Assembly: GCA_951406725.2 (NCBI GenBank)
Contig: OX597815.1
Coordinates: 133,238,001-133,302,000, forward strand
Direction of reading: 5' to 3'
DNA: 64,000 bases
DNA from: Octopus vulgaris
Taxonomy: Eukaryota
Below are positions 1,179 to 61,820 of this stretch, piece by piece; within the stretch, counting starts at the first letter, position 1, and every line of letters begins with the position of its first letter. A model generated the notes under the pieces. The model was not told the origin of the DNA. It was given only the letters and a program-made list of their open reading frames with translations, and did no database searches. The position numbers and the translations under genes were made by a program.

Positions 1179-1326
1179 AACTACACCCTCTCTTCCGTAA
1201 AACAGTAAGTTTTAAACTTTCGACTAATTTTTCACATTCTCGTTTAAACTCGGTTGTATAAATATTCGCGGCCTGGGGTCGTATTGGAAGCAAAGCTATC
1301 TCCTTAACGACCTTAGGTCGCATCGT

Positions 1327-3744
1327 TTGGATGTAGTGGTAATTACCGAATCCAGACTGAGTGGGCTGCAGGACTTTACGCCCCTTCTAAACGGCTACGA
1401 GAAATACGTTTCTCCCTGTCGACCTGGAGGGGGAGGAGGAGTGGCAGTGCTGGTCAGGAAAAACCTGGGTTTAGAGATTAGAACTGTCTTTATAGATCCG
1501 GAAGGCAGGTTGGTCGTTTTGGATGTGACGCACAGCAGTGGTAAAGTGTTCAGGCTGGTCGCTGTCTATGCTCCCTGCGAAGGAAAAGCCGGGCAGAAAG
1601 AGTATTTCAAAAGCCTAGAGAATTTTCTTGGCACGTTGAACACGTTAGTATTGCTAGGTGACTTCAACATAATTTGCGATGCACGCGTAGATTATGTTGG
1701 CTCGAGAAAGATTAGGAGGGGATTACCTCACCTCAACGATATGCTAAGTCGTTTCTAATTGGCAGATAGATTCAGACTGGACCACCCAAACACTCCAGCG
1801 TGGACTTGGGCAAGAAACGACGGGTCGTCCAGTTCTTACATTGATAGAATCATAACTAGAAGCTGTCCACTTAGCTGTCCACAACACCATATCGTCAGCT
1901 ACAGCGATCACAAATTAGTGACCTGTACGCTCGACATAAATAGCATGTGTAGACGATGTACCGGTTACTGGAAGCTAAACAAGTCACTATTGGACTGTGA
2001 AGCCTACAGGAATCGTATTAAACAATTAGTAATGAGGGTGTTAACCGGATCCATTATCAACAACAAATGGTGGTACGCCCTGAAAAGAGCCATCAAATTT
2101 GAGTCAATTAGGTTTAGCAAAGAACTAGCTAGTGCTAGAAACAAAATAGAAAACGAACTAGTTAAGGCAATGAGGCAATGAGGTCAGGCAGTGCATCGAA
2201 AGTGTTAGCGGCGAGGTTAGCACTCGACCAACATCTCAAAGCTAAACATGAAGGGTGCATCGTCAGGGCTAAGATCCGTGCAATGAGACAAGAAGGGATC
2301 AATGCAGACGGATGGGCCCGGATGGTAGAGGGCCAGCGTGGCAACAACTCAACCATTCGATCCTTGACGGGCCCAAATGGTCAATTAGTAGATGAACCCG
2401 AGGAGATGTGCAAGGTGTTTCATGATCATTTCGCCTAGCTATTCGGGAGGAGCAGCGAGCTGGAGCGCGGGGAGAAGTTCGCAGACTTCCTAGCCGGTTC
2501 GCCGTGTCTATCGAGGCGCCGTGTCTATGTGAGGCGCCGATCACAGCCAAAGAAGTCGAGGATATGTTGGCAGACTGCGGCGGGGACAAATCGCCGGGAC
2601 TCGATGGTCTGCCTTACGAACTCTATAGTAGCATGGCAGACTTGTTTGGGCACCTACTTGCATGCGTGTACACCAACTGGCAGCAGAACGGGAGAATTCC
2701 TAAGTCTGTGAGCCGAGGGGTGGTAGCGCTGTTAAGAAAGGACCCAAACAAGGGGGATTTAATTGATAATTTTCGGCCCATCACTCTGCTTAACGCAGAG
2801 TTGAAGATTTTGGCCAAGGTCTTAGCAAAAAGGTTGGCGCGGGTCGTGGGTGAACTTGTTGGCGAGGCGCAAACTTGCTCCATCCCTGGAAGGACCATCC
2901 ACGACAATCTCCACTTTCTACGCTATGCCTTAGAAAGGGTAAATAGGATTCCTGGCAAGGGTGGGGCTATGGTCCACTTGGACCAATCGAAAGCGTTTGA
3001 TAGGGTGGACCATTAGTATCTTGCGGCAGTCCTCGCGGCGGCTGGCTTCGGCCCGACCTTCCGCGGATGGATCATCGCTTTATACAGCAACATCGAATCG
3101 GTAGTTCGGGTAAATGGTTGTTTTTCGGAGCCGTTCAGCATTGAACGTTCGGTACGTCAAGGGTGTCCTCTCTCCCCGCTTCTCTACGTTTTGGCCCTCG
3201 AGCCGTTGCTGAGGAGGTTGGAAACTATGAGAGACACTCCGCAAGATCTAGGGTGCGGAAAGTCAGCTTCGGTGTATGCGGACGACATCACCGTCATCGT
3301 TTCCCGAGTCGAGCACCTACAATGGGTGGGTGAGGCCTTAAGGGACTGCGAAGCGGTGGCAGGAGCGAAAGTCAACCGGGATAAATCGGTCGGCTTGCAA
3401 CTCGGCACCTGGAGGGGCAAGTCGATGTCTTCCGACAGCGTCGTAGGACGTTGGACGGAAGGAGCGGTGAAAATGCTTGGAATCTGGTAAGGTCCAGATC
3501 TCCAGATAGAGAAGAACTGGAGCGAGGTGGCGAGAAAGGTGGCTCTCCTAACTCAGACATGGTCTGAGCGGAAGCTGTCCTTGAAAGGGAGGGCGGAAGT
3601 TGCAGAGGTGTTTATCGCCTCTGTAATCACTTACCGCCTGACCGTCGTGCCTTGCCCCGATTCGTGGCTGAACAAACTAGAACGCATGTTCTTTCGCTTT
3701 TTGTGGAGGGGCAGCAGACCTCTTGTAAGGCGCTCTATTTGCTG
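1327..3744 (+). pseudogene. LINE ORF2 (APE endonuclease + reverse transcriptase), disrupted
   Basis: APE motifs ITES, VYAP, LGDFN, SYIDRI, SDH and GYWKLN. RT motifs KSPGLDGLP, FRPITLLN, LDQSKAFDRVDH, VRQGCPLSP and YADD. Stops at 1758, 3016 and 3490, frameshifts, and a short tandem duplication near 2500-2540. Confidence 0.9.
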
Positions 3745-7237: not shown

Positions 7238-7920
7238 CAGTAGTTTTATTTTTATTTTTATAGCGTGCTTTCACTTCACTACCGAGCGCAGCTCTGTGTG
7301 CCTTGGGTAGGTGCTGTGATTTGTTGTGATGCTCTGATGGTTATTGTATGGAAAGTGTTCTGCGTAGGATGTGGGCAGTGCCTAGTAGTGCAATTTTCTG
7401 TATGTTATATGTGTTTGTAAGTCCTGGTGTTTTTGTTATGTATTTGTCTGAATATTTTTTTATCATGCCTAATGCACCTACTATGATAGGAATTGTTTCT
7501 GTTTTCAGATTCCACATTCTAGTTACCTCTATTTCCAGGTCTTTGTATTTTGAGAGTTTCTCCATTTCTTTTAGAGACACGTTGTCATCTGCCGGTATTG
7601 ATACATCAATTAAAAAGCATTTTTTTTCTTCATGATCTCTGACAACTATATCTGGTCTGTTGGCCTTAATTTCTCTATCTGTGTGTATCGGCATATCCCA
7701 GAGTATGGTTGCTTTCTCGTTTTCTGTGACCTTTTCTGGTGTGTGCCTATACCATCTTTTTTCTGTTGTTATTCCATAATGTTGGCATAGCTTCCAATGT
7801 ATGTAGGTTCCAACTCTGTCATGTCTGTGAATATATTCCTTCTTAGCCAGGACTGGGCAGCTAGAGATAATATGATTTATTGTTTCTTGTCCATCTCCAC
7901 ATATTCTGCAGTTACTTGTA
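7238..7920 (-). mobile_element. R4/Dong-type retrotransposon, RLE domain and 3' UTR
   Basis: ORF 7341-7694 carries ANRPDIVV..LIDVSIP..KLSKY..LGTAHILRRTLS (PD-(D/E)xK RLE). Upstream CPVLAKKEYIHRHD is readable. Flanked by (TAT)n. Confidence 0.9.
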
Positions 7921-7963
<43 letters not shown>

Positions 7964-29670: not shown

Positions 29671-30650
29671 ATGAAGGAGTCCCTAATTTGCATACCGAAA
29701 ATGTTTAACCCCTCTATAAACTGTTTAAATACTCAACAAATGCAACAGTTATTCGATGAAGGAGTCCCTAATTTGCATACCGAAAATTTTTAACCCCTCT
29801 ATAAACTGTTTAAATACTCAACAAATGCAGTAGTTATTCGATGAAGGAGTCCCTAATTTGCATACCGAAAATTTTTAACTCTCTATAAACTGTTTAAATA
29901 CTCATCAAGTGCAGCAGTTATTCTATGTAGGAGTCCCTAATTTGCATACCGATAATTTTTAACACTCTATAAACTGTATATATACTGAACAAATGCAGCA
30001 GTTATTCGATGAAGGAGTCCCTAATTTGCATAACGAAAATTTTTAACCCCTCTATAAAATGTATATAGACTCAACAAATGCAGCAGTTATTCTATGCAGG
30101 AATCCATAATTTGCATACCGAATATATTTAACACTCTATAAACTGTTTATATTCTCAACAAATGCAGTAGTTATTCGATGAAGGAGTCCCTAATTTGCAT
30201 ACCGAAAATTTTTAACTCTCTATAAACTGTTTAAATACTCATCAAATGCAGCAGTTATTCTATGTAGGAGTCCCTAATTTGCATACCGATAATTTTTAAC
30301 ACTCTATAAACTGTATATATACTCAACAAATGCAGCAGTTATTCTATGAAGGAGCCCCTAATTTGCATACCGAAATTTTTTAACACTCTATAAACTGTAT
30401 ATATACTGAACAAATGCAGCAGTTATTCGATGAAGGAGTCCCTAATTTGCATAACGAAAATTTTTAACCCCTCTATAAAATGTATATAGACTCAACAAAT
30501 GCAGCAGTTATTCTATGCAGGAATCCATAATTTGCATACCGAATATATTTAACACTCTATAAACTGTTTATATTCTCAACAAATGCAGTAGTTATTCGAT
30601 GATGGAGTCCCTAATTTGCATACCGAAAATTTTTAACCGCTCTATAAACT
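29671..30650. repeat. ~84-85 bp tandem satellite, ~11.5 copies
   Basis: Unit ATGAAGGAGTCCCTAATTTGCATACCGAAAATTTTTAACCCCTCTATAAACTGTTTAAATACTCAACAAATGCAGCAGTTATTCG starts at 29671, 29756, 29841, 29925 and so on. Confidence 0.95.
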
Positions 30651-31243: not shown

Positions 31244-32519
31244 TGTTTCTTTATTAGCCACACAGGGCTGCACACAGATAGAACAAATTACAAGGTAGAG
31301 CTTTTCTTTTGAAGGTTTAAAAAAATTTTTTTAAATAAAAAATAAAAAAATAAAATAAAAATAAAATAAAAAAGGGGGGGTCGATCAAAAGGGATCGTAA
31401 AAGGAGAGAAAGAGGACAAAAAAAAGGGGGGGTTAAAAAAAATGGGGGAGAGGAAAAAAATTGATCAATAGGGATCGTTATCACAGAAATGTCAATATGA
31501 AGTGTAAAGGGGAGGACAGGTGAGGTTTACCCGTGGAAAGAAAAGCCTACGGAAAAGACCACGGTAACCTCGGTCAATGAAGTCACATGTTATATTTCTT
31601 TTTTTTTTTTATTTGCAAATAAGCAACTCTCTGTATTAATTTTTACGGTTCATAGAATCATAGTCAAGGTGGCTTCGTCATTCATACGTGCCATCCTTGC
31701 TACATTCACCCATCTTTTTTTAAAACATTCACTAGACAAAACTTGCCTCTCTACTCTCACTTTTTCTTCAAGTGATACTTGAAGAAGTTGATGAGAGATT
31801 GACCAGAGAGGAAAGTGTTTGTCTCTAATCCTTTCAGACGCGTCCACCAGATACATTCTTTCGCCATAGCCACAAGTATGATAAAAATAGCTCTTCCTTC
31901 CCGTTTGAAGGAAGGAGGCGTGACGATATTAACGATAGACTCGGCTGATAAACCGACACGTCCCACACGTGACAGCAGTCGTTCGACATAAGCCCACAGG
32001 TGGGAAATTGCTGGACACTGCACGATTGCGTGCAGAGCGGTTTCGTCGCTCTGCCCGCATCTCGGGCAGGTCGGCCCCGTGTTTCTCGAGCCATGCCTAT
32101 AGAGCTTATCCCGAACGGGTAGCGCTTCTCGGTAGCACCGCCAGGCCAGGGATCTCTGGAAGTTGTCCATAGGTCCCGGGCCGAAAGTCGTTTGAAACAG
32201 GCGGGTCAGGTATTCCTCGTCGACGCCCAGGTTTGCCCCGAGCTCGTCGTCGTACCTCCCCTCCACTAATCCCCTATAGAATGCTTTGGTTGTGTTGAAG
32301 TCACTCAAGGTCGACCCGGGACGGCAGAGTTGCTTGAGAGCAACGCGACACTCGCGGTGCCATTCGCCCTTCTTCGGCCTCTTTTTGATCCACGACTGTA
32401 GTTCGGTCATGGAGACGAGTTGCGGGAATGCGTGCCTCACAAACGGCGACCACACCTGTTCACCGTCGTCTACATAGAGCCGGAGATGTCGCAGTCTCAG
32501 CGCGTGTCTGCGCATCATC

Positions 32520-32520
<1 letters not shown>
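31244..32520 (-). mobile_element. Tx1-clade LINE 3' portion (zinc-finger C-terminus + 3' UTR) inserted in (GATA)n
   Basis: Frame reads RRHALRLRHL...LAWRCYREALPVRDKLYRHG...CPRCGQSDETALHAIVQCP...FFKYHL. The 3' UTR ends AATAAAGAAACA(TATC)n. GATA arrays lie at 31154-31243 and 32521-32602. Confidence 0.85.
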
Positions 32521-32589
<69 letters not shown>

Positions 32590-33910
32590 TGATAGATAGA
32601 TAGTGCGTAATGTATGGATATGAAGAGTGTAAGGTGAAAGATGATAAAAGTGCAAAAATTCTTGAATGAATCATTTTATTGACGCCTCAGTGTAATATGT
32701 CTCTTTGGCAAGATTCATCTCCATATTTAATATTCTAAGCACGCTTCAATATTCCTAGATCGTTTTCAAATTGATTTGATCTACGAAATCTTTCCCAATA
32801 ATAGATTTCACATATTGGCACAATGCCAGAATGAAAGACATCTTTGAGTACTGACGGAATTTGAAATCGGAACTTAACACAATAACGCCGTAGGACAAGT
32901 AATTTGGCGCTCTACCAATTGCGTTTCTTTATCGTGCTCTTCCTTTTCATTATAGTATGTTTTATCATAGTTTGATGACACACTTTATTGCTTAGAATAT
33001 TTGTTAACCACTGGTAGTTCATTTCTTTTTATACTATGAGATCAACGAACGTCTCCTAGAGAATCACATGTCAAGAACATAGTGCTTGTCATGTTATTAT
33101 CGCAATAATGTACAGTGGTGGTTTCTTGTTGCCCTACTCCAGGTATTTTTTACAAGACATCATCTAATCAGCTAGATACAGACCACGTATGCTTTGGTAC
33201 TTAGAACATAAAAACCCGAAGCAAATACTCTAAAAGTTCCGTCATCACATCGCCCCTTGGCAAGTATTGTATGGAATTCAAACGTTGGAATAAATATTGC
33301 AAAGCATTTTATCACACGCTCTAACGCATCTTATAAGCCGCCACTTTACGTACAATCTATAACTTCAAAAATTAAATAAATTTATTGTTAATATATTTCT
33401 TTCTACGATAGACAGAAAGCCTGAAATTTTGGAGGAAGCGGTTACTTGATTACATCGATTTCCGTGTGCTTAGCTGGTACTTACTTTAGCGATCGATGGA
33501 TAAAAGGTAAAGTCGATCTCGGCGGAGTTCGAACACAGAATGTAAAGCTTAAGGAACTGTGGTTAAGTATTTTCCCAACATGCTAACGATTTTGCTCGCT
33601 AGCTGCCCTTGCTGATATATTGGTTTCAAATTTTGGCACAAGACCAGCAATTTCGGGGCAAAGGACTTGTCAATTACATCGGACCCAGTACTTAACTGGT
33701 GCTTATTTTATCGACCCCGAAAGGATGAAAGTCAAAGTCGATCTCGGTGGAATTTGAACTCAGAGCTTTAAAGCCACATGGCTCTGGGTTCAGTCCCACT
33801 GCGTGGCACCTTGGGCAAGTGTCTTTTACTATAACCTCGGGCCGAACAAAGCCTTCTGAGTGGATTTGATAGTCGGAAACTAAAAGAAGCCTACTGTATG
33901 CGTGTGTGTG

Positions 33911-34951: not shown

Positions 34952-34990
34952 TAGATTTATATATACATACACACACACGCGTGTGTATGT

Positions 34991-35645
34991 GTGGATCTTT
35001 TCGCGGGTGCCTGTCAGCGTGCTTTGGAGCGGTTCAACTTCTCCAGGCGCCACCCCCGCCTCAACATCTCCCCGGCCGAGCTCTCGGCTCTTCGTTCCCT
35101 CCGACGGCGCGCTGACATTGTCATTAAACCGGCCGACAAGGGTGGAGCTGTGGTGGTGTGGCGCGCGGACCTCTACAGGGCCGAGGCGCTCCGCCAATTC
35201 AATGACACCTCCTTCTACTCCCCTCTGTCCTCTGACCCCACGCTTAGCTACCAACAGACGGTCTCCTCTACTGTCCACGACCTCATCTCGTCTTCCCGTC
35301 TCCCCCACACCGCATCCAACATCATTGTCCGAACCCTACGCACCCCCACCATTTACTTCCTCCCCAAAATCCACAAACCCAACAACCCTGGCCGCCCCGT
35401 CGTCTCCGCCTGCAACTGCCCAAGAGAAAGAGGATAAAAAAAAGAGGACGCCATGATAGATCGTTAACTCCTACACGCATTTTTTTCTCTCCTTGTTTTT
35501 TTCTGTGTATCCTTCTGTCGAAGAGCGTAGGCTCGAAACGTAAAAGACTTTTTCTATTTCTATTCCTGAACGCTATACTAATACATTTGTTTGTTTGTAC
35601 TCCACCTGCCTTCGTCTTTTGTTTATTTTCGTAAACTTTCCCTTT
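34991..35645 (+). mobile_element. Penelope-like RT N-terminal fragment joined to a pseudo-LTR-like 3' segment
   Basis: ELSALRSLRRRADIVIKPADKGGAVVVW and YFLPKIHKPNNPGRPVVS are hallmark PLE motifs. The downstream non-coding part has a hammerhead-like motif at 35510-35548. Confidence 0.85.
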
Positions 35646-39391: not shown

Positions 39392-39435
39392 AATATCAGA
39401 CATGTTTCGATCTGATTAGACCTCGTCAGTGAATT
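39392..39435 (-). ncRNA. Minimal type I hammerhead ribozyme
   Basis: Minus strand reads AAUUCA-CUGACGA-GGUCU(AAUC)AGAUC-GAAA-C(AU)GUC-UGAuAUU. It has a complete core, a 5-bp stem II, a palindromic ACAUGU stem III and a GUC site. Confidence 0.7.
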
Positions 39436-44904: not shown

Positions 44905-44953
<49 letters not shown>

Positions 44954-44968
44954 TATACACATATATAT

Positions 44969-45004
<36 letters not shown>

Positions 45005-45019
45005 CATATATATATACAC

Positions 45020-45052
<33 letters not shown>

Positions 45053-45086
45053 AACATATATATATACACACATATATATATACACG

Positions 45087-45122
<36 letters not shown>

Positions 45123-46481
45123 CATATATATATACACACATATATATATACACATATATATATATATATATACATATATATATACACGTATATATATATA
45201 CACATATATATATATACACGTATATATATATACACATATATATATAATCATATATACATATATATATATATATCATCATATATACATATATATATCATCA
45301 TATATACATATATATATATCATCATATATACATATATATATCATCATATATACATATATATATATCATCATATATACATATATATATATATCATCATATA
45401 TACATATATATATATATATCATCATATATACATATATATATATATCATCATATATACATATATATATCATCATATATACATATATATATCATCATATATA
45501 CATATATATATATATCATCATATATACATATATATATATATCATCATATATACATATATATATATATCATCATATATACATATATATATATATCATCATA
45601 TATACATATATATATATATCATCATATATACATATATATATCATCATATATACATATATATATATATCATCATATATACATATATATATCATCATATATA
45701 CATATATATATATCATCATATATACATATATATATATATCATCATATATACATATATATATATATCATCATATATACATATATATATATATCATCATATA
45801 TACATATATATATATATCATCATATATACATATATATATATCATCATATATACATATATATATATATCATCATATATACATATATATATATATCATCATC
45901 ATATATACATATATATATATATATATCATCATCATATATACATATATATATATATCATCATCATATATACATATATATATATATCATCATATATATATAT
46001 ATATATCATCATATATACATATATATATATATATATCATCATATATACATATATATATATATATATATCATCATATATACATATATATATATACCATCAT
46101 ATATACATATATATATATCATCATATATACATATATATATATATATCATCATATATACATATATATATATATATCATCATATATACATATATATATATAT
46201 ATCATCATATATACATATATATATATATCATCATATATACATATATATATATATCATCATATATACATATATATATCATCATATATACATATATATATAT
46301 ATCATCATATATACATATATCATCATATATACATATATATATATCATCATATATACATATATATATATATCATCATCATATATATATATATATATATCAT
46401 CATATATACATATATATATATATCATCATATATACATATATATATATATATCATCATATATACATATATATATATATCATC

Positions 46482-46525
<44 letters not shown>
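44905..46525. repeat. 1.6-kb (TA)n-based compound micro/minisatellite (CATCATATATACA(TA)n units)
   Basis: Read directly from the sequence. Confidence 0.95.
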
Positions 46526-46526
<1 letters not shown>

Positions 46527-46609
46527 GGTCCCGGGTTGATTCGGGGTTAACCACAGTAAATAAGGTACTCAATACATAGCAGAGTAAAATTAATTCATTA
46601 TATAGAAGG

Positions 46610-46660
46610 AGCTTCTACAGGACTAGAACTGTTTCATTCAAGAGAAATCATCAGGAAGCT
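46610..46660 (-). ncRNA. Type I hammerhead ribozyme (inverted copy of 47599-47649)
   Basis: Exact reverse complement of the plus-strand motif at 47599-47649. Confidence 0.65.
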
Positions 46661-47090
46661 AGCTAACAAGGTGTATGTAGGTGTATATGTATGTGTGTAT
46701 ATATATTTATTGGTGTATATGTATGGACTAGTCTTCTAAACGTGTAGACATGAATCTGTAGGTACGCGTACGTATGTGTATATATGTGAATGTATGTAGA
46801 TGTATGTATGTATGAATATAACGCGTGCGTGCGTGTATGTGTATGAGTGTACGAATGAGTGAGTGTGCGTGCTAATGAGTGTGCGTGCTAATGAGTGTGC
46901 GTGCGTGAGTGAGTGCTTGTGTTCAAGTAGAAAGATAAATGGACTTGCTGTCGTAGCCAAGATGCTTGTGACCCGCGGTCAAAGATAACAAAAGTAATAA
47001 ATGAAGATAATAATAAAATTAAAATTAGGGAATGGGTTTGTATTTGTATGTATATGTGTGTATGTGTAGGTATGTATAGGTACACATGTG

Positions 47091-47135
<45 letters not shown>

Positions 47136-47236
47136 ATATATGTGTATATAGGGACTTGTGTGTGCATGTGTGTATGTGGATATGTGTGTGTATGTGTGTA
47201 TGTGTATGTGTGTGTATGTATATATTTTTTTGTGTG

Positions 47237-47298
<62 letters not shown>

Positions 47299-47598
47299 CA
47301 TGTATATATATATGTGTGTGTGTGTATGTATGTGTGTATGTATATGTGTGTGTGTATATATATACATATGTGTATATGTATAAGTGAGAATCTCCTTGTT
47401 TACCTAAAACTCTATACTTCTATATATTTTTTTATTTTTTTATTCTTTTATTTATTCTTTTATCTAATTTACCACTGACTCCTTGACCACTCCCCCAAGT
47501 ATGATATTTTTGCGCTATGCCTACCCCCAAAAAGTCCCCCACCACCACCCCTTTAAACCTGCCTAAATGTATAAATGCCAATACAATTCTTGTTAGCT

Positions 47599-47649
47599 AG
47601 CTTCCTGATGATTTCTCTTGAATGAAACAGTTCTAGTCCTGTAGAAGCT
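47599..47649 (+). ncRNA. Type I hammerhead ribozyme
   Basis: AGCUUC-CUGAUGA-UUUC(UCUU)GAAU-GAAA-CAG(UUCUAGUC)CUG-UA-GAAGCU. It has a 6-bp stem I, a 4-bp stem III and a GUA site at 47641-47643. Stem II is short with a U-U at its base. Confidence 0.65.
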
Positions 47650-47874
47650 CCTTCTATCTAATAAATATATATATATATATAATTCTGTAGGTATATAATA
47701 CCACTAGCTAAAGTTATGTGTATCTTTATTGTAATTTTTATGGTGGTTTTTGGAGCAATGGCTCTGATTTTAATAAGTGGTATTATATACCCTACTGAAT
47801 CTTAAAATAATTTATATTGTGCCTTTACAGGCACAATATTATTACTATAAATAACAGTAATAATACTTCTTTAT

Positions 47875-48625: not shown

Positions 48626-48690
48626 TACATTAATCGTATTTCGGCCAGAGTTCTTTCATCACACTTCTGTGACCTCATCAGTGGTCCTTT
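48626..48690 (-). ncRNA. Hammerhead ribozyme truncated at its cleavage triplet
   Basis: Minus strand reads GGACCA-CUGAUGA-GGUCA...UGGCC-GAAA-UACGAUUAAU-GUA and then an A-rich flank. The 3' arm of stem I is absent. Confidence 0.55.
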
Positions 48691-49928
48691 GCTTTCTTTT
48701 TTCTTATTTGTGTTTCTTTCCTTACTAACGATCAGCCATTTTGTATTTTGTATTCCTATTGTATATGTCTTTATTTGCACATGCGTATACCCCTATGTGT
48801 CGATGTTTTGTAAGTGCGTGTGGGGGGTGCCTGTATTATCTGTATTCCCTGTTTATACACGTTTGTTTAATTCGTTTTTATTTATTTTGTTCATTATTAT
48901 TATTTTTTCTATTCTTTCTTCTTTTGTATTTAATTTAATTTAATTTTTTTTAATTTTAAATTTTGTTAATGTACATAGTTATTTAATTCCATTTGTTCAT
49001 CTGTATATTGTATTATATTTTGTTCATATTGTTATCAGTTTATGGGGATCTTATTCTGTCATATGTTGTGGTGTGTTGGGGGTGTGTGCTAGTGTTCAAT
49101 TCCAGTTTCCTATTCAGGCTAGATTTATCTTCTATTATGTACGTAGCTTCTGTAATTTGTCTAAGCGTTGCGTCTGTTCTATGTGTGGACAAGATTTTAA
49201 CTTCTATGTTGTTGAGTGAGCCCACATGTTCCTGCTCAGTGTGCTGGTACAGAACCAATGAGCTCTTCTCTTCCTTAAATTCCCTCCAATGGTCATTTAC
49301 CCGCTCTCCTATGCTCCATGTCGTTTCCCCTACTACGTCGTTGTCTTGTTACTGCATCATCCCTCTGTACGTCTTATACAATAGACTACATTTCTGGCTT
49401 TACAGTTTGTTTGTGGGCTAAATCTACACACAGTACAGTTCCTATCAGTACAGGGGGGTCTACTAAAAGGGTAGGATCTACCGATTAGGGATTTGATAGG
49501 GTTGCCTGGCCTTTCAACAACCTTAATCCTTAGCTTAAGTTTGTCTAGGGCCCTTCTAAAGCAGTACACCAGTTCGCCTCTAGGGGTGGTGTCGACAAAC
49601 ATGACACTCTGGTATTTGTGGCTATCATACCAAGAGTTGGCCTTCCCTACTTTCTTCTTAGTCCTTTCAATGGTGTTCCATGACTTGCTCCTATAGAGTG
49701 GGCAAATCCCATTCCTATCATTACATATGATAGCTTCAAATTTCCTCATGGCTCCTTTGTATATTCTGATCCTTTCTTTATAGCTGTAAGCTGAGAACTG
49801 CATGTGGTGAACGAAATGTTGTATGTGTCTCTTTAACTCTGTTGGGTCTCACATGTGGAACACATTTCGCATTACTCTGACGAGGTCAGAGCAATGCGAG
49901 TGTGCGACCCAACAGAGTTAAAGAGACA
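48626..49928 (-). mobile_element. Penelope-like element 3' half (Naiad-like), with 3' UTR ending in a hammerhead half
   Basis: PLYRSKSW, VMFVDTTPRGEL, IKVVERPG, Cys linker CTDRNCTVC..NCKARNVVYCI, VGET, ERVNDH and LRQITEA..LN (GIY-YIG). Frameshifted. Confidence 0.8.
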
Positions 49929-50305
49929 TAGGCCAAGATAATGGTTGCTAACCCATGATGAAGCACTAATCTAATCTTAAGTATTCTGTCGCATACTCTG
50001 ACTACCTCAATTACCTTATCTACCCATTTCTCCACAAGAAGTATACCCACGCTCCCGACCCTGTCAGTGTTCCCTGCCCAGAAAATCCTGTACCTGTGTT
50101 CTTTGCTTTTGAGGTACCTAGCAGAATCTCCTCTCCACCTTACTTCTTGGATGCAGCACATATCGACACATCTCTCTTCAAGCATCTCAACAATCTCACC
50201 AGACCTACCTTTCAGTGTGCCGACATTGAGAGTGCCAACCCTGAGGGTGTGGGAGGTATGGGCCCTTGAGTCCCTAGGACGGGGGACAGTAGTGTCATGT
50301 ACCTG
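49929..50305 (-). mobile_element. RTE-clade LINE APE endonuclease N-terminal fragment
   Basis: LRVGTLNVGTLKGRSGEIVEML..VDMCCIQEVRWRG..VGILL..RILKIRL..IILAY. Confidence 0.8.
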
Positions 50306-53711: not shown

Positions 53712-56700
53712 TTTACTTTTAATCTGCATGTTTGATGCAATCACCTGCCGGGGCACACCCAGCGCCCTAGGGCAAGTGAAGGTTAAGAGTTGTTGAAATA
53801 TAGCTGAAAGCTTGGGGAGGGGAAGTAGAGAAATATCTCCATGTAATACAAACACAAACATTTACATTGATAGGGTTTTTCTAAGGATGTGGGCAGTACT
53901 TGTTAGCACAATCTTTTGGATTTCCTTGAGACATGGTTTTCCAGGGATATTGTCTAGGTGTTTCTGACATCCCTTTTTTATCATACCTAGGGCACCTACA
54001 ATAACAGGAACAGTTTTTGTTTTAAGATTCCACATCCTCTGTATTTCGATTTCCAGGTCCTTATATTTACTAAGTTTGTCAAATTCCTTGACAGATACAT
54101 TTTTATCAGTGGGGACGCTTACTTCTATTAGTCTGCAGGTATTTTCTTCCCTGTCTTTAACAATTATGTCTGGTCGATTAGCCTTGATCGTTCTGTCAGT
54201 GTTGACTGGAAAATCCCAGAGGATGGTGACATCTTTACCTTCAACAACTGGCTGAGGATGGTGTTCATACCAGTTAGCAGGAGTGTCGGATTTGTAGTGT
54301 TTACATATCTTCCAATGTATATACTGTCCTACCCTATCGTGGCGATTTTTGTATTCGTTTGGTGTCAGCACAGGACATCCCGAAACGAGATGGTCTATTG
54401 TTTCGTCAAATGTGTCACAGAATCTGCATTTAGGGTCAGTACCGTTTCGGAGAACGTTAGCCTGGTAATTTCTGGTAAACAAGCTTTGATCTTGTGCTGC
54501 CATTATGAAGCCTTCAGTCTCTGCTTTCAATCCAGAACTCTTCAGCCACTGATGGGTTGTTGCTTGGTCTACATCAGCATTTTGGCTTCGGAGAATGTAT
54601 TGTCCATGCAGGGGCTTCTGGCTCCACCGCCTCTCAATTTGATTCTGCCCATTCTTTTTTGCAGTCTGCCTGATTCGCTTTGCTTGCTTGGTAGCAGTGG
54701 TTTCTGGCTCTTCACCTGATTCAAGGTTAATGCCTAGTTCCCTTTCGAACTTATAAGCTTCCTTGACAATAGAATGCAGCTTTTTGCTGCTTTCGTGTTC
54801 ACACACAAGTCGCAGCATCCAGTCGTTTGTACTAGATAGGTACCTGTTCATTCCTACAGTAGAGGTCTTATAGCACAGCTCCAATTGCATCATTCCTCTC
54901 CCCCCGCTGCTTCTAGGTAGGTACAAGCGGTCTACATCTGCCTTAGGGTGGTGCATGCTCCTGGATGTCAGTAACTTTCTTGTCTTCCTGTCCAAGCGTT
55001 GGAGTTCCGTAAGGTTCCAGTTAATGATGTTAAAACTGTACTGGACTACTGGAAGTGCCAGGGTGTTAATGGCCTCAATGCAATTTTTGGAGTTGAGTTC
55101 AGTCTTCAGTACAAGCCTTATTCTCCTATAGTACTCCTTTCTTATTTTTTCCTTCATAGTAGCATGATGTATACCATCTCCTTCGTTGATTCCTAGGTAT
55201 TTGTAGCTTTCTTGTGGGTCAAGTTCCTTGATGGTAGTGTCAATATCTAATTTAACAGAAGCTGTTTGCCTGAGCTTGCCTCTTACAAAAGTTGCTTTAG
55301 CACACTTATCAAGGCCAAAATCCATTCCGATATCATTGCTAAACTCTTTAACAGTTGTTAGCAGCCCTTCTAGCTCTTGGTCATTCTTGGCAAACAGCTT
55401 TAGATCGTCCATATAAAAAAGGTGGTTTATTAACTTGCTAAAAACTTTGTACCCATATCTGGCACTATCCAATTCGTTTGAGAGTGGGATCAGTGCCATG
55501 CAAAAAAGTAATGGAGAGAGGGAGTCACCTTGAAAGATGCCTCGTTTGATGTTGATGCTGTTGGACTGGCTCATCCCATTACTATGGCTTAGAAAGAGAC
55601 GTGTGTTCCACATGGTCATGCTATTCTCTAAGAATTTTGAGACGACAGGGGAGATCTTGTATATCTCAAGGGCCTTGAGTATCCATTTATGTGGGACACT
55701 GTCATACGCTTTCCTGTAGTCTATCCATGCCATACTCAGGTTTTTGTTTTTGCTCCGGCAATTCTCTACAATCATTCTGTTTATGAGCAATTGGTCTTTG
55801 CACCCATAAGAGTTTCTTTTACAACCTTTTTGAGCTTGTGGAAGGATAGAATTTTGTTCAAGGAAAGCGTACATTCTCTCCGTTATTATGGATGTGAGGA
55901 TTTTGTAGGTGGTGTTGAGACATGTTATTGGCCGGTAATTCTTTGGGTTTTTTGTGTCTTCGGTTTTAGGTAATAGGTAGGTGGTTCCTTCAGTCAGCCA
56001 AGCAGGTATTTGCTCTGGGTTCTGAATGACATCAGACAGAGATGCAGCGAGATGTTCGTGTACCTCTGTCAAACAATTCAGCCAGAAGTTAGGGATCCGA
56101 TCCAGTCCTGGGGTTTTCCATTTATGAGCCTTCCTAAGGACACACCTTAGCTCCTCTATTCCTATTGCTTCCCATTTCTGTTCTTCAAGTTCATCCAGTC
56201 TCTCTTTCTCACGTTCTATCCAGTCAGCCTCAGCATTAAACTCTTTTTCGTTGCTCCATACCTTCTTCCAGAACTCCTCCACTTCCTCAATCTTAGGTGG
56301 ATCTTCTATGTGTATTTTATTTTTGCCAATTTCCCTATAAAATTTCTTTGCATCTGTCTTAAAAAATTTATTTTGTCGATAAAATTTGTTTCTTTTGTCA
56401 TACCTTCTAAGCCGTTGAGCTTTCAACTGTATCCGTTGTTTCAACAGTTCCTTAGTTGCAGGGAGGTTTATGAGATCTTTGATTTTATATTTTTGCTTGA
56501 TTTTTCTAGCTTTTCTCGGCTTAATATTCACTCCTCTAGCAAGCTCATCGAGAACTGAAACATCCGCCCGCAGAGATTCAATCTCTTTTTGTATCGCTAC
56601 TTTCCACTTAGGAGGTTCATTGACATGCCTGGCCTTTTTCTTTGTCATCTTAATACCTAGTTGGGTAGTTACTACTTTAGCAGTGGAATAAATGAGATTA

Positions 56701-58292
56701 TTTAAGGTTGTCAAATCATTCCCCTTATTTCTTAAGATCTGTCCTAGGGCAACGTTATATGTCATGATTGTGTTGTTATTTCTTGTGCCATTTGAAAACT
56801 TTGGTAGTGGTTCTCTATTAACCATGTCAGTGAGCTCAATCTTGCCGAGTTCTCTCATAATGTCCACTTTTGCTTCCATAATCTTTTCTCTATTATTCAC
56901 CTCAAATTCTATGTCATATCTATTTTGGTTTTCTTGAGGAAGGTCTACGTTCTCCTCTTTTTTCAAATCTCTCGTCTTCGCTATTCTTTGTTTAACTTCC
57001 CCATTGGGAAGTTGATTTGCCGCTTGTACACTGGCTTCTGTGCTACTATTACCTATTTCGTCTACATTGTTGCTGTTTTCTTTTGGTCTACCATGAGCTA
57101 TTAGTGTCCTAATTTTGTCAATTTCAGCGTCAGTTAGTCTTTTGTTTTTAATTATATCTCTGCGTACATTACTTAATTTATTTGCGTCTATATATCTACG
57201 TACGTCATTGCCTACTGAATTTCTCCATGAGATGTATGTTTGTACACTGAGGTTATTGTTTGGGTTTAGTTGGGCTGTATAAAAAGCTTTCAACACATCT
57301 CTATAGTCCTCTCTGGTCCATTTTATACGTTTTGCTTTAGGTGGTGTTTTTGGTGGTGTCACTACAAGTCCAGAGTTAGAAGTATTCTGGTTCTGGTCAC
57401 CTGGTAGATCGTCTTTTTGAGAGTTTGTTCCAGCAGCAAACTTTTCGACCCCAGTCTGGTTCCCTACTGGGTAACGCGGTCCTTGTTGTCCCGGGCGATG
57501 ACCGATCCGGCATGATTTTTGGCTTGTTTTCATTAAATGATTGACGGCGACATCAGAGGGGTCAATTTTTTCAGAGTCAACTTTTTGACAAGACGCCGCT
57601 TCTGTGACGGTGACAGGGTCAATTTTTTGACAAAACACCGCTTCTGAATTCTCCGAATTAATATATTGTTCATATCGAACTCGCATAAGACTTACAGATC
57701 GAAATTCGCCTCTATTTCTTTTGGTAGTCATGTTTCCGGGCATAACTGTGTAGTGACTTTCTAAATTCAGTGACCAATTTTCTCTTTTTTGCGTTTGTTC
57801 GTGAAAAATCGCTTTGTTTTTGTTTTGTTTTCGTCCGCGTAACGTGGTTTTTCTTTCTGTGTGTACGTGTGAGCGCGTGTATGCATTATTTATGCTTTAT
57901 AATTAAAATGTGTACATGTATGCACAAACAGTTGCATGTATACTTTATAATTAAAATGTGTACGTGTATGCATAAACAGTTGCATGTATACTTATTTAAT
58001 TAATTAATTAATTAATCAATTTATGTACTTACTGTCTTTCAAGAGCTCTGATGTTCGCTTCTATTTCTTATGCATGTCACATGGAAATATTGTGCATAAA
58101 AGAAAGAAAACCATACTATATATGGCAATAATAGTTCGGACTTTTTAGTTACTTTGCCTTAAAAGAAAATTTGGAAAAGATATTTTGTGGAACCTTTCTT
58201 CCATTGTAACGATGTTGTTGGATTAAATTCGTTTTTTGGAGAGAGGCTCCCAGGGAACATCCATGTTGTTATTCCGGAACATCCATGTTGTT
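53712..58292 (-). mobile_element. Full-length R4/Dong-clade non-LTR retrotransposon in a TAA microsatellite
   Basis: Single intact ORF with ~550 bp 5' and ~150 bp 3' untranslated regions. (TAT)n arrays lie at 53644-53711 and 58291-58397. Confidence 0.9.
53862..57743 (-). CDS. Reverse transcriptase with C-terminal CCHC finger and restriction-like endonuclease (R4/Dong)
   Basis: 1293 aa with no stops. Motifs KTPGLDRI, YRPITCL, IDYRKAYDSVPH, GIFQGDSLSP, YMDDLKL, YKYLG, CRFC..ETIDHLVSGC, RHD and RPDII..IEVSVP..KLSKY. Confidence 0.95.
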   Translation of the reverse strand: MPGNMTTKRNRGEFRSVSLMRVRYEQYINSENSEAVFCQKIDPVTVTEAASCQKVDSEKIDPSDVAVNHLMKTSQKSCRIGHRPGQQGPRYPVGNQTGVEKFAAGTNSQKDDLPGDQNQNTSNSGLVVTPPKTPPKAKRIKWTREDYRDVLKAFYTAQLNPNNNLSVQTYISWRNSVGNDVRRYIDANKLSNVRRDIIKNKRLTDAEIDKIRTLIAHGRPKENSNNVDEIGNSSTEASVQAANQLPNGEVKQRIAKTRDLKKEENVDLPQENQNRYDIEFEVNNREKIMEAKVDIMRELGKIELTDMVNREPLPKFSNGTRNNNTIMTYNVALGQILRNKGNDLTTLNNLIYSTAKVVTTQLGIKMTKKKARHVNEPPKWKVAIQKEIESLRADVSVLDELARGVNIKPRKARKIKQKYKIKDLINLPATKELLKQRIQLKAQRLRRYDKRNKFYRQNKFFKTDAKKFYREIGKNKIHIEDPPKIEEVEEFWKKVWSNEKEFNAEADWIEREKERLDELEEQKWEAIGIEELRCVLRKAHKWKTPGLDRIPNFWLNCLTEVHEHLAASLSDVIQNPEQIPAWLTEGTTYLLPKTEDTKNPKNYRPITCLNTTYKILTSIITERMYAFLEQNSILPQAQKGCKRNSYGCKDQLLINRMIVENCRSKNKNLSMAWIDYRKAYDSVPHKWILKALEIYKISPVVSKFLENSMTMWNTRLFLSHSNGMSQSNSINIKRGIFQGDSLSPLLFCMALIPLSNELDSARYGYKVFSKLINHLFYMDDLKLFAKNDQELEGLLTTVKEFSNDIGMDFGLDKCAKATFVRGKLRQTASVKLDIDTTIKELDPQESYKYLGINEGDGIHHATMKEKIRKEYYRRIRLVLKTELNSKNCIEAINTLALPVVQYSFNIINWNLTELQRLDRKTRKLLTSRSMHHPKADVDRLYLPRSSGGRGMMQLELCYKTSTVGMNRYLSSTNDWMLRLVCEHESSKKLHSIVKEAYKFERELGINLESGEEPETTATKQAKRIRQTAKKNGQNQIERRWSQKPLHGQYILRSQNADVDQATTHQWLKSSGLKAETEGFIMAAQDQSLFTRNYQANVLRNGTDPKCRFCDTFDETIDHLVSGCPVLTPNEYKNRHDRVGQYIHWKICKHYKSDTPANWYEHHPQPVVEGKDVTILWDFPVNTDRTIKANRPDIIVKDREENTCRLIEVSVPTDKNVSVKEFDKLSKYKDLEIEIQRMWNLKTKTVPVIVGALGMIKKGCQKHLDNIPGKPCLKEIQKIVLTSTAHILRKTLSM

Positions 58293-60892: not shown

Positions 60893-61820
60893 GAGAATGC
60901 AATAAGATAGGTGGAGGCCTGAATGCAATAAGATAGAGAGAGGCTTGAATGCAATATGACAGATAGAGGCTTGAATGTAATAAGATAGATAGAGGCTTGA
61001 ATGCAATAAGATAGATAGAGGCTTGAATGCGATAAGATAGAGAGAGGCTTGAATGCAATAAGATAGATAGAGGCCTAAATGCAATAAGATAGAGGCTTGA
61101 ATGCAATATGATAGATAGAGACCTGAATGCAATAAGATAGATAGAGGCTTGAATGCAATAAAATAGACAGAGGCTTGAATGCAATAAGTTAGATAGAGGC
61201 CTAAATGCAATAAGATAGAGGCCTGAATGCAATAGGTTAGATAGAGGCCTGAATGAAATAAGATAGATAGAGGCTTGAATGCAATAAAATAGACAGAGGC
61301 TTAAATGCAATAAGATAAATAGAGGCCTAAATGCAATAAGAGGCCTGAATGCAATAGGTTAGATAGAGGCCTGAATGAAATAAGATAGATAGAGGCTTGA
61401 ATGCAATATGATAGATAGAGGTTAGAATGTAATGAGATAGATAGAGGCCTGAATGCAATAGGTTAGATAGAGGCTTGAATGCAATAAGATAGATAGAGGT
61501 TAGAATGTAATAAGATAGACAGAGGCCTGAATGCAATTAGATAGATAGAGGCTTGAATGCAATTAGATAGACAGAGGCTTGAATGCAATAAAATAGACAG
61601 AGGCTTGAATGCAATAAGATAGATAGAGGCTTGAATGCAATAAAATAGACAGAGGCTTGAATGCAATAAGATAGATAGAGGCTTGAATGCAATATGATAG
61701 ATAGAGGCCTGAATGCAATAAGATAGATAGAGGCTTGAATGCAATAAGATAGACAGAGGCTTGAATGCAATAAAATAGATAGAGGTTTGAATGCAATAAA
61801 ATAGATAGAGGCTTGAATAA
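60893..61820. repeat. 26-bp minisatellite (GAGGCTTGAATGCAATAAGATAGATA), ~35 copies with 22-bp variants
   Basis: Read directly from the sequence. It lies in the intron just upstream of the PON-like exon. Confidence 0.95.

Follow-up and report, generated by a model that had tools for sequence, protein, structure and literature searches.

Organization of the locus

The window analyzed here, the whole 64-kb stretch of Octopus vulgaris DNA, is rich in microsatellites and carries several fragments that belong to LINEs or to Penelope-like elements (PLEs). Within it lies a unit bounded by two outward-facing arms that are separated by 918 nt (Table 1). As the original prediction had claimed, the arms form a perfect inverted repeat: they are exact reverse complements at 69 of 69 positions, far above the longest exact inverted repeat found in 200 dinucleotide shuffles of 46530-47686 (maximum, 20 nt; mean, 12 nt). 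Outward, the similarity of the arms reaches 76 of 78 positions (to 46593 and 47666, by BLAST), and inward the match stops immediately. Full identity ends at the base of a hairpin predicted at 47641-47657. The unit is asymmetric, with 72 nt outside the left arm and a right-side counterpart of only about 9 nt; the one-sided extension measures 58 to 72 nt. A direct repeat of the arm or the tail was not found at this locus.

The surroundings and the interior had been described as simple repeats, which proved accurate in part. The left flank is a TA-rich array of 1.6 kb and is the likely insertion target. The right flank contains only 8 TA units (47666-47681). The interior is mostly microsatellite between 46671 and 47385, where 72% of the steps are TA, AT, TG, or GT, and not between 47386 and 47588, where the proportion is 28%. 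No coding interior was found, as the ATG-started frames of 60 to 159 codons in the unit are microsatellite read-throughs only. The stretch directly upstream of the right arm contains a C-rich tract and a TATAAAT sequence at 47570-47576, and where it begins on its 5' side is obscured by the masked interval 47390-47456.

The heptamer TGTAGGT is the sole direct repeat of at least 6 nt (with at least three different letters) common to both end regions of the unit. Of its 8 occurrences on the window's plus strand, 5, including 3 interior ones, fall within 1.17 kb (46523-47692). Because of the three interior copies, and because a 9-bp version, TATGTAGGT, brackets the left arm alone (46521-46529 and 46674-46682), we treat TGTAGGT as a weak candidate for a target site duplication (TSD). 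Its excess in this interval may reflect a target preference, nested events, or microsatellite drift.

Table 1. Features of the inverted-arm unit and its borders
Feature	Position	Strand	Basis
(TA)n / CATATATATAT-CAT microsatellite array	44919..46522	.	TRF period 2, 753 copies; sequence
Candidate 7-bp TSD TGTAGGT, left copy	46523..46529	+	Direct repeat between end regions
Candidate PLE tail, 72 nt added to the inverted arm at its 3' side	46530..46601	-	Sequence; no second copy in window
Hammerhead end of the family, here inverted and 5'-truncated (= 47589-47657)	46602..46670	-	Sequence match
Type I hammerhead motif, inverted arm; predicted cut 46616/46615, after GUA	46610..46660	-	Descriptor match
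TG/TA microsatellite-rich noncoding stretch; nonrepetitive island at ~46910-47040	46671..47385	.	Tandem-repeat and composition analysis
Pseudo-LTR-like stretch of the high-copy family, adjoining the right arm upstream	47458..47588	+	Contig depth, bridging contigs
Right arm in native family context, near-private G at 47596	47589..47657	+	Match and run contigs
Type I hammerhead motif, right arm; predicted cut 47643/47644	47599..47649	+	Descriptor match
Predicted 7-bp hairpin across the cut site, competing with the hammerhead fold	47641..47657	+	Fold prediction
AATAAA (47660-47665), then (TA)8	47660..47681	+	Sequence
Candidate TSD TGTAGGT, right copy	47686..47692	+	Single-copy depth starts about here

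A hammerhead-like motif in each arm

Both strands of the window were searched with a type I descriptor that specified CUGANGA, GAAA, and UH, at least 4 pairs each in stems I and III, and 3 of 4 pairs in stem II. Exactly two matches were obtained, one per arm, whereas 100 shuffled windows yielded 0.02 on average and never more than 1. The earlier claim of a hammerhead in each arm is borne out to this extent, since the core and three helices are present, and the descriptor returned the same two cut sites as the original prediction. In the right arm, stem I comprises 6 bp (47599-47604 with 47644-47649) and is followed by CUGAUGA at 47605-47611. Stem II has 3 bp, a 4-nt loop, and a U·U apposition (47612/47623) at its base, and is followed by GAAA at 47624-47627. 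Stem III has 4 bp and an 8-nt loop containing CUAG, and the cleavage triplet is GUA.

The hammerhead call rests on our own descriptor, since Rfam returned no hammerhead at the gathering score in the window, nor any with an E value of 10 or less in 46400-47800 or 47560-47670. Apart from a snoRNA at an E value of 1.8, the weak Rfam matches that did appear were to miRNA models and were driven by microsatellites. Exact-pattern scans for the hammerhead core gave 0 matches in viral, metagenome (two scans), and prokaryote genome collections.

The motif lacks a Watson-Crick pair at 10.1-11.1: U·U is found in place of G10.1-C11.1, a pair reported to be highly conserved in hammerheads in the available text of PMC4209133. 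The mismatch had been flagged before, and it is real; as a mark of decay it does not hold up, for it is the family-wide state, with no variant at 3% or more at these two positions across four sequencing runs. The arm motif is a hammerhead-like variant, and its self-cleavage is a prediction from sequence. No measurement of the effect of U·U at 10.1-11.1 on cleavage was found in the portions of the literature that were available.

Predicted folding

The statements in this section are computed predictions. In an isolated 53-mer, the probability of formation is 0.99 for helix I and 0.38 for stem III, and the 69-mer folds no better than its own shuffles (z = -0.06). When 8 nt are added downstream, the 47641-47657 hairpin is preferred over the hammerhead (-10.9 versus -7.8 kcal/mol), and helix I prevails only in transcripts that end at 47649-47656. 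The cofolded dimer showed swapping of stem I rather than a canonical dimer.

In RNA that runs from end to end (46530-47686), the arms pair completely as a 69-bp duplex of -127.4 kcal/mol. A transcript from either strand had been expected to cleave itself. This expectation was not upheld: since the arms pair completely, the hammerhead is predicted to be buried and silent in the through-transcript of either strand.

The right arm is the end of a high-copy family

We searched public sequencing runs with 47390-47870 (481 of the ~1,160 bases in the unit and its right flank together) and found the query partly present in 20 of 24 runs, which comprised five organism codes and nine studies. None of these runs is recorded as RNA. 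Four runs were aligned, in all cases as contigs: X1 and X2, which come from organism A and two studies, X3 from organism B, and X9, which is guessed to be RNA. The alignments skip 47390-47456 and 47649-47689 as repeats. Beyond these four runs, shares under 0.5 were excluded from the evidence. The assembly may derive from X1, and independent support therefore comes from X2 and X3. The depth of X9 over the repeat was 20,827 to 58,935, and given its guessed nature it was set aside as evidence.

Summed contig depth over 47458-47644 was 0.49 to 2.6 million in X1, 0.01 to 1.2 million in X2, and 0.6 to 1.5 million in X3, and the flank at 47696-47712 had depths of 39.7, 13.5, and 24.9, respectively. 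Relative to the single-copy flank, the depth at 47596 is about 10,000- to 12,000-fold, which is a rough order of magnitude and not a copy number. The hammerhead motif closes the high-copy stretch (47458-47648), and AATAAA follows.

Depth is continuous across the inner border of the right arm (47588/47589), and contigs that cover 31 letters or more to either side of it are seen in X1 (47551-47639), X2 (47557-47642), and X9 (47550-47627). These come from the 32 pieces listed out of 10,919, among which there was none for X3. From the bridging contigs we conclude that the family lies on the plus strand, with the right arm as its native 3' end, and that the left arm is an added inverted copy. The same contigs rule out the minus strand as the main body of the family. 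The inner junction of the left arm was absent among the 24 loose ends listed out of 236 (6 per run), and depth over the arm showed no consistent doubling. The locus had been taken for a fixed element bounded by two hammerheads. The continuation of the right arm into its upstream sequence throughout the family, together with the absence of the left inner junction among the listed loose ends, leaves such an element unsupported.

One loose end of X1 (16 contigs) has a different inverted junction, in which the hammerhead core, reverse-complemented and altered once in loop II, abuts 47599. It could be a second outward-facing pair, without a spacer and listed for X1 only, or else a library chimera. 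This fold-back sits at an AGCT palindrome and may represent palindromic mini-insertions of a sister subfamily or, again, chimeras of the library.

The loose ends of X2, X3, and X9 (47518-47595) suggest at least one diverged sister family with the same hammerhead and different upstream sequence. In a related subfamily of X3 and X9, U at core position 7 is replaced by A; this position is known to be free to vary.

On the right, 47714-47831 appears to be an older dispersed repeat, with contigs 85 to 90% alike and a summed depth of up to 37,000. Because of this repeat, single-copy depth is seen only at ~47690-47712 and in the difference-free contigs covering 47776-47870.

Age, constraint, and a shared rare base

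The family majority departs from this copy at a single position, 47596, within 47458-47648, so this copy is young. The majority base is A, which makes up 90.9, 94.1, 97.4, and 96.8% of the depth in the four runs. Bases that are neither A nor C, including the G of the window, make up at most 1.4, 0.019, 0.048, and 0%, respectively. Both arms carry this rare G, and they are therefore likely to share one template. In X2, the depth that is neither A nor C at 47596 is 85, or ~2.3 times that of the single-copy contig (37.7), and it may include T; this excess is weakly compatible with two arms. A young, nonautonomous PLE-type derivative had been proposed for the locus, and both the single majority difference and the layout, which fits published PLE insertions, agree with that proposal.

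Substitutions at 3% or more occupy 11 positions in 47458-47597 (140 nt) and 0 positions in 47598-47648 (51 nt). By hand arithmetic, the chance that all 11 would fall outside the hammerhead is (140/191)^11, or ~0.03. This gives modest support to constraint on the hammerhead, weakened by the masked edge at 47649.

A probable single insertion of the PLE type

The locus probably holds one young, 5'-truncated, noncoding insertion of a very abundant PLE-type family, in which the hammerhead-bearing 3' end was likely copied twice from one template. The extension on one arm, the candidate 7-bp TSD, and the (TA)n target appear to fit the published layout of PLE insertions with inverted pseudo-LTRs (pLTRs). 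The locus likely works as a PLE insertion, the PLE label being assigned by layout and by the hammerhead end.

The insertion may have formed as follows, with the nicking and priming steps modeled on the available text of PMC11167929. A PLE reverse transcriptase (RT)-endonuclease supplied in trans would nick both strands at the edge of (TA)n, possibly 7 bp apart (TGTAGGT), and each free 3' end would prime reverse transcription near the 3' end of RNA from one source. The first cDNA would start in the tail and halt after ~141 nt (46530-46670, minus strand). The second, untailed, would start near the base of the 47641-47657 hairpin and run longer, up to ~1 kb. The 5' ends of the two cDNAs would then be joined head to head, and 46671-47385 would be either the microsatellite-rich 5' part of the family or captured host DNA. 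The hammerhead would be the family's pLTR ribozyme, with predicted cutting limited to RNA started inside the unit, where it is probably weak, cotranscriptional, or protein assisted.

Several features sit less easily with this reading. Of the 9 bases that border the 69 on the outside, 2 differ between the arms; under a single template, this can be explained only by a right copy that ends at 47657. The extension of 58 to 72 nt exceeds the published PLE tails of 30 to 40 bp. The 9-bp repeat around the left arm and the interior copies of TGTAGGT allow a reading as separate insertions. An autonomous element with the same 3' end was not found, and the neighboring PLE fragment is dissimilar in DNA.

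Relation to known elements

The architecture itself is already known: publications of 2013-2014 described inverted pLTR pairs that bear hammerheads on opposite strands. The comparisons here refer to those parts of the cited papers that were available. In typical PLE insertions, a pLTR is inverted and 5'-truncated, only one end has a tail, and there is a bias toward (TA)n (PMC8557442), and the same layout is given as typical in PMC8969392. Inverted pLTR units with TSDs of 8 to 10 bp and a tail at one end were described by Arkhipova et al. (2013, PMC3846280), as was noncoding DNA captured between solo pLTRs. The octopus copy resembles insertions of EN+ PLEs (PMC3846280; Craig et al. 2021, PMC8557442) in its inverted, 5'-truncated 3' end and one-sided extension, in a short candidate TSD around the whole unit at a likely (TA)n target, and in a TATA-like box upstream of the ribozyme and noncoding DNA between the repeats. 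It differs from them in having neither an open reading frame nor a direct tandem pLTR, and in the length of its extension (58-72 versus 30-40 nt).

In Schistosoma mansoni, dual hammerheads ~100 to 700 bp apart on opposite strands have been ascribed to truncated PLEs (Cervera and de la Pena 2014, PMC4209133). The octopus pair is similar in that it consists of two type I motifs on opposite strands, from a family whose copies are mostly dispersed. Its arms are farther apart (918 nt), and its motif, which is not a minimal hammerhead, combines a stem III of 4 bp and an 8-nt loop with a 3-bp stem II and U·U in place of G10.1-C11.1, and shows little variation across the family. Metazoan PLE hammerheads are reported in the same source to have low activity in vitro.

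Animal non-LTR retrozymes form head-to-tail tandem units of ~300 bp and circular RNA (PMC7229834; bioRxiv 10.64898/2026.07.22.740005, as far as their available text goes). Like the octopus family, they are noncoding and high copy with a type I hammerhead; they are probably mobilized by PLE proteins, and solo monomers are common among them. Unlike them, the octopus locus has no head-to-tail tandem unit.

A mechanistic parallel proposed for the octopus copy is PAc (Poseidon, Anolis), in which the PLE protein cleaves both strands of AT-rich DNA and extends each of them, with two RT start sites defining the tail (Frangieh et al. 2024, PMC11167929). Cutting and extension of both strands, yielding one tailed and one untailed end, would account for the octopus copy in the same way. 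According to the available text of that paper, the PAc hammerhead requires protein for its activity and is dispensable for insertion in vitro. Whereas the PAc open reading frame begins within the hammerhead, the frames begun by ATGs in or after the octopus motif are closed by stops only a few codons on.

Our literature searches turned up no account of hammerhead repeats in cephalopods. In the 2026 repeat annotation of O. vulgaris (PMC13282606), the word "ribozyme" has 0 occurrences in the main text, the part of the source available; 31 recently active PLE families are reported there. The family described here may already be included in the library of that study or in Repbase/Dfam. The value of the present observations lies in the abundance of the family, its conserved U·U variant, and the rare base shared by the arms, which offers a handle on how inverted arms form. 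The formation of PLE inverted arms and tails is called unresolved in the available PLE literature, and thousands of young copies would allow it to be tested directly. If active, a hammerhead with U10.1·U11.1 would broaden search descriptors that now miss such motifs.

A more far-reaching, joint reading is rather doubtful. It holds that the family is an undescribed nonautonomous PLE parasite of ~10^4 copies with an active U·U hammerhead gated by the hairpin, and that this copy records an inversion from one template. Were it true, the right-hand ~200 to 270 bp would be the end of a PLE parasite common to several related species, and the family-wide U·U hammerhead would still cut. The downstream hairpin would leave a transcription window of ~8 nt and mark one start of reverse transcription, and the near-private base would be a natural record that both arms came from one template in one event.

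Alternative explanations

Among the rivals to a single PLE-type insertion, the one that survives best, improbable as we consider it, invokes two separate short insertions (solo pLTRs or retrozyme-type monomers) ~0.9 kb apart in a host microsatellite, followed by gene conversion. It would account for the 9-bp repeat that flanks the left arm plus tail alone, for matches of 9 to 10 bp to the right flank at 46755 and 47065, and for the abrupt end of identity, with 2 mismatches in the next 9 nt. Near neighbors are expected at ~10^4 copies, and gene conversion would also carry the private base into both arms. It takes three events rather than one, however, and a copy with 1 majority difference in ~190 bp is so young that little time was available for conversion. 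Moreover, a single 7-bp repeat brackets the whole unit, and the one-event layout is the published norm in the available text of PMC8557442 and PMC3846280.

It is very unlikely that the unit is a MITE-like DNA transposon flanked by TA, with terminal inverted repeats (TIRs) of 65 to 69 bp that happen to contain a hammerhead. Perfect inverted arms ~1.05 kb apart, both ending in TA beside AT-rich DNA, and an interior devoid of coding sequence would suit such an element. Were two arms present in every copy, however, 47589 would be expected among the top loose ends, and this junction is absent among the 24 listed out of 236; nor is the depth of the arm consistently doubled, and the inverted junction of X1 is a different one. 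To our knowledge, no hammerhead occurs in the TIRs of a DNA transposon. Hammerheads are, on the other hand, a hallmark of PLE ends (PMC4209133, in the text available).

We give hardly more than a slight chance to an artefact of assembly or polishing that duplicated or homogenized one arm. Read evidence is lacking across the left arm and the right outer junction (47649-47689 was skipped as a repeat), and the adjacent long TA array is error prone. Against this, the repeat spans only 69 bp and all four of its flanks differ, as they would not in a fold-back chimera, and the shared base departs from the family majority, toward which a collapse would have pulled it. The X2 depth at 47596 that is neither A nor C is weakly compatible with two arms, with the caveat that it may include T.

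An ambisense ribozyme element had been offered as an alternative. An integrated replicon of this kind, a viroid- or ambivirus-like RNA with one hammerhead per polarity, would suit the hammerhead near the 3' end of each strand, and is scarcely credible: one of the two ribozymes is a copy of the other, and unit-length RNA of either strand is accordingly predicted to pair both arms completely (-127.4 versus -7.8 kcal/mol for the hammerhead), one cut per strand with no tandem copy makes excision of a monomer impossible, the two-arm form is apparently not the family norm, and no match to the core pattern was obtained in collections of viral, metagenome, or prokaryote sequence.

Other repeats in the window

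PLEs are present in the vicinity, as seen from an RT fragment with a CX4CxxC linker at 49300-49890. A frame there (49357-49848, minus strand) had 1 match among 52 candidates, an 803-aa RT-domain protein of Octopus vulgaris (NCBI) to which it is 82% identical, and the linker follows the RT in both. This linker is associated with Neptune/Nematis PLEs in the available text of PMC8557442. The fragment was considered as a partner of the inverted-arm unit and rejected as belonging to a different family, since there is no significant similarity in DNA (best, 40 nt at 75%, E = 0.057).

The minus-strand interval 48640-49930 appears to be a decayed PLE fragment, 78% alike over 197 aa to P0001 (tblastn), with a broken endonuclease region. 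The 5' end of the fragment carries a fold-back palindrome (49826-49929) whose DNA fold amounts to -42.8 kcal/mol. A CUGAUGA...GAAA core without a clear stem I is found at ~48681-48635. The interval may represent a second inverted PLE junction, from a different family, within 1 to 2 kb. A further core, CUGACGA...CGAAA with a plausible 4-bp stem II, occurs at 39429 on the minus strand; it failed the stem I/III descriptor and is possibly a decayed minimal hammerhead.

At 34955-35437 (plus strand), a frame without a Pfam match above the cutoff contains IKPADKG and PGRPVVS, which we take to resemble the N-terminal part of a PLE reverse transcriptase. An uninterrupted frame of 1,344 codons at 53862-57896 (minus strand) matches RVT_1 (E = 3.7e-31) and, weakly, zf-RVT, and looks like a young non-LTR retrotransposon, presumably with a C-terminal restriction-like endonuclease. 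A fragment related to this element lies at 7341-7922. Broken LINE-type fragments, with endonuclease-like or RT-like frames in translations judged by eye, are found at 1228-3490 (plus strand) and 31757-32686 (minus strand). A scan for tRNA genes as a tRNA/SINE head, run with bacterial settings, gave 0 in the window. Two minisatellite arrays are present, one at 29671-30650 with an 84-bp unit (11.6 copies) and the other at 60895-61818 with a 26-bp unit (36 copies).
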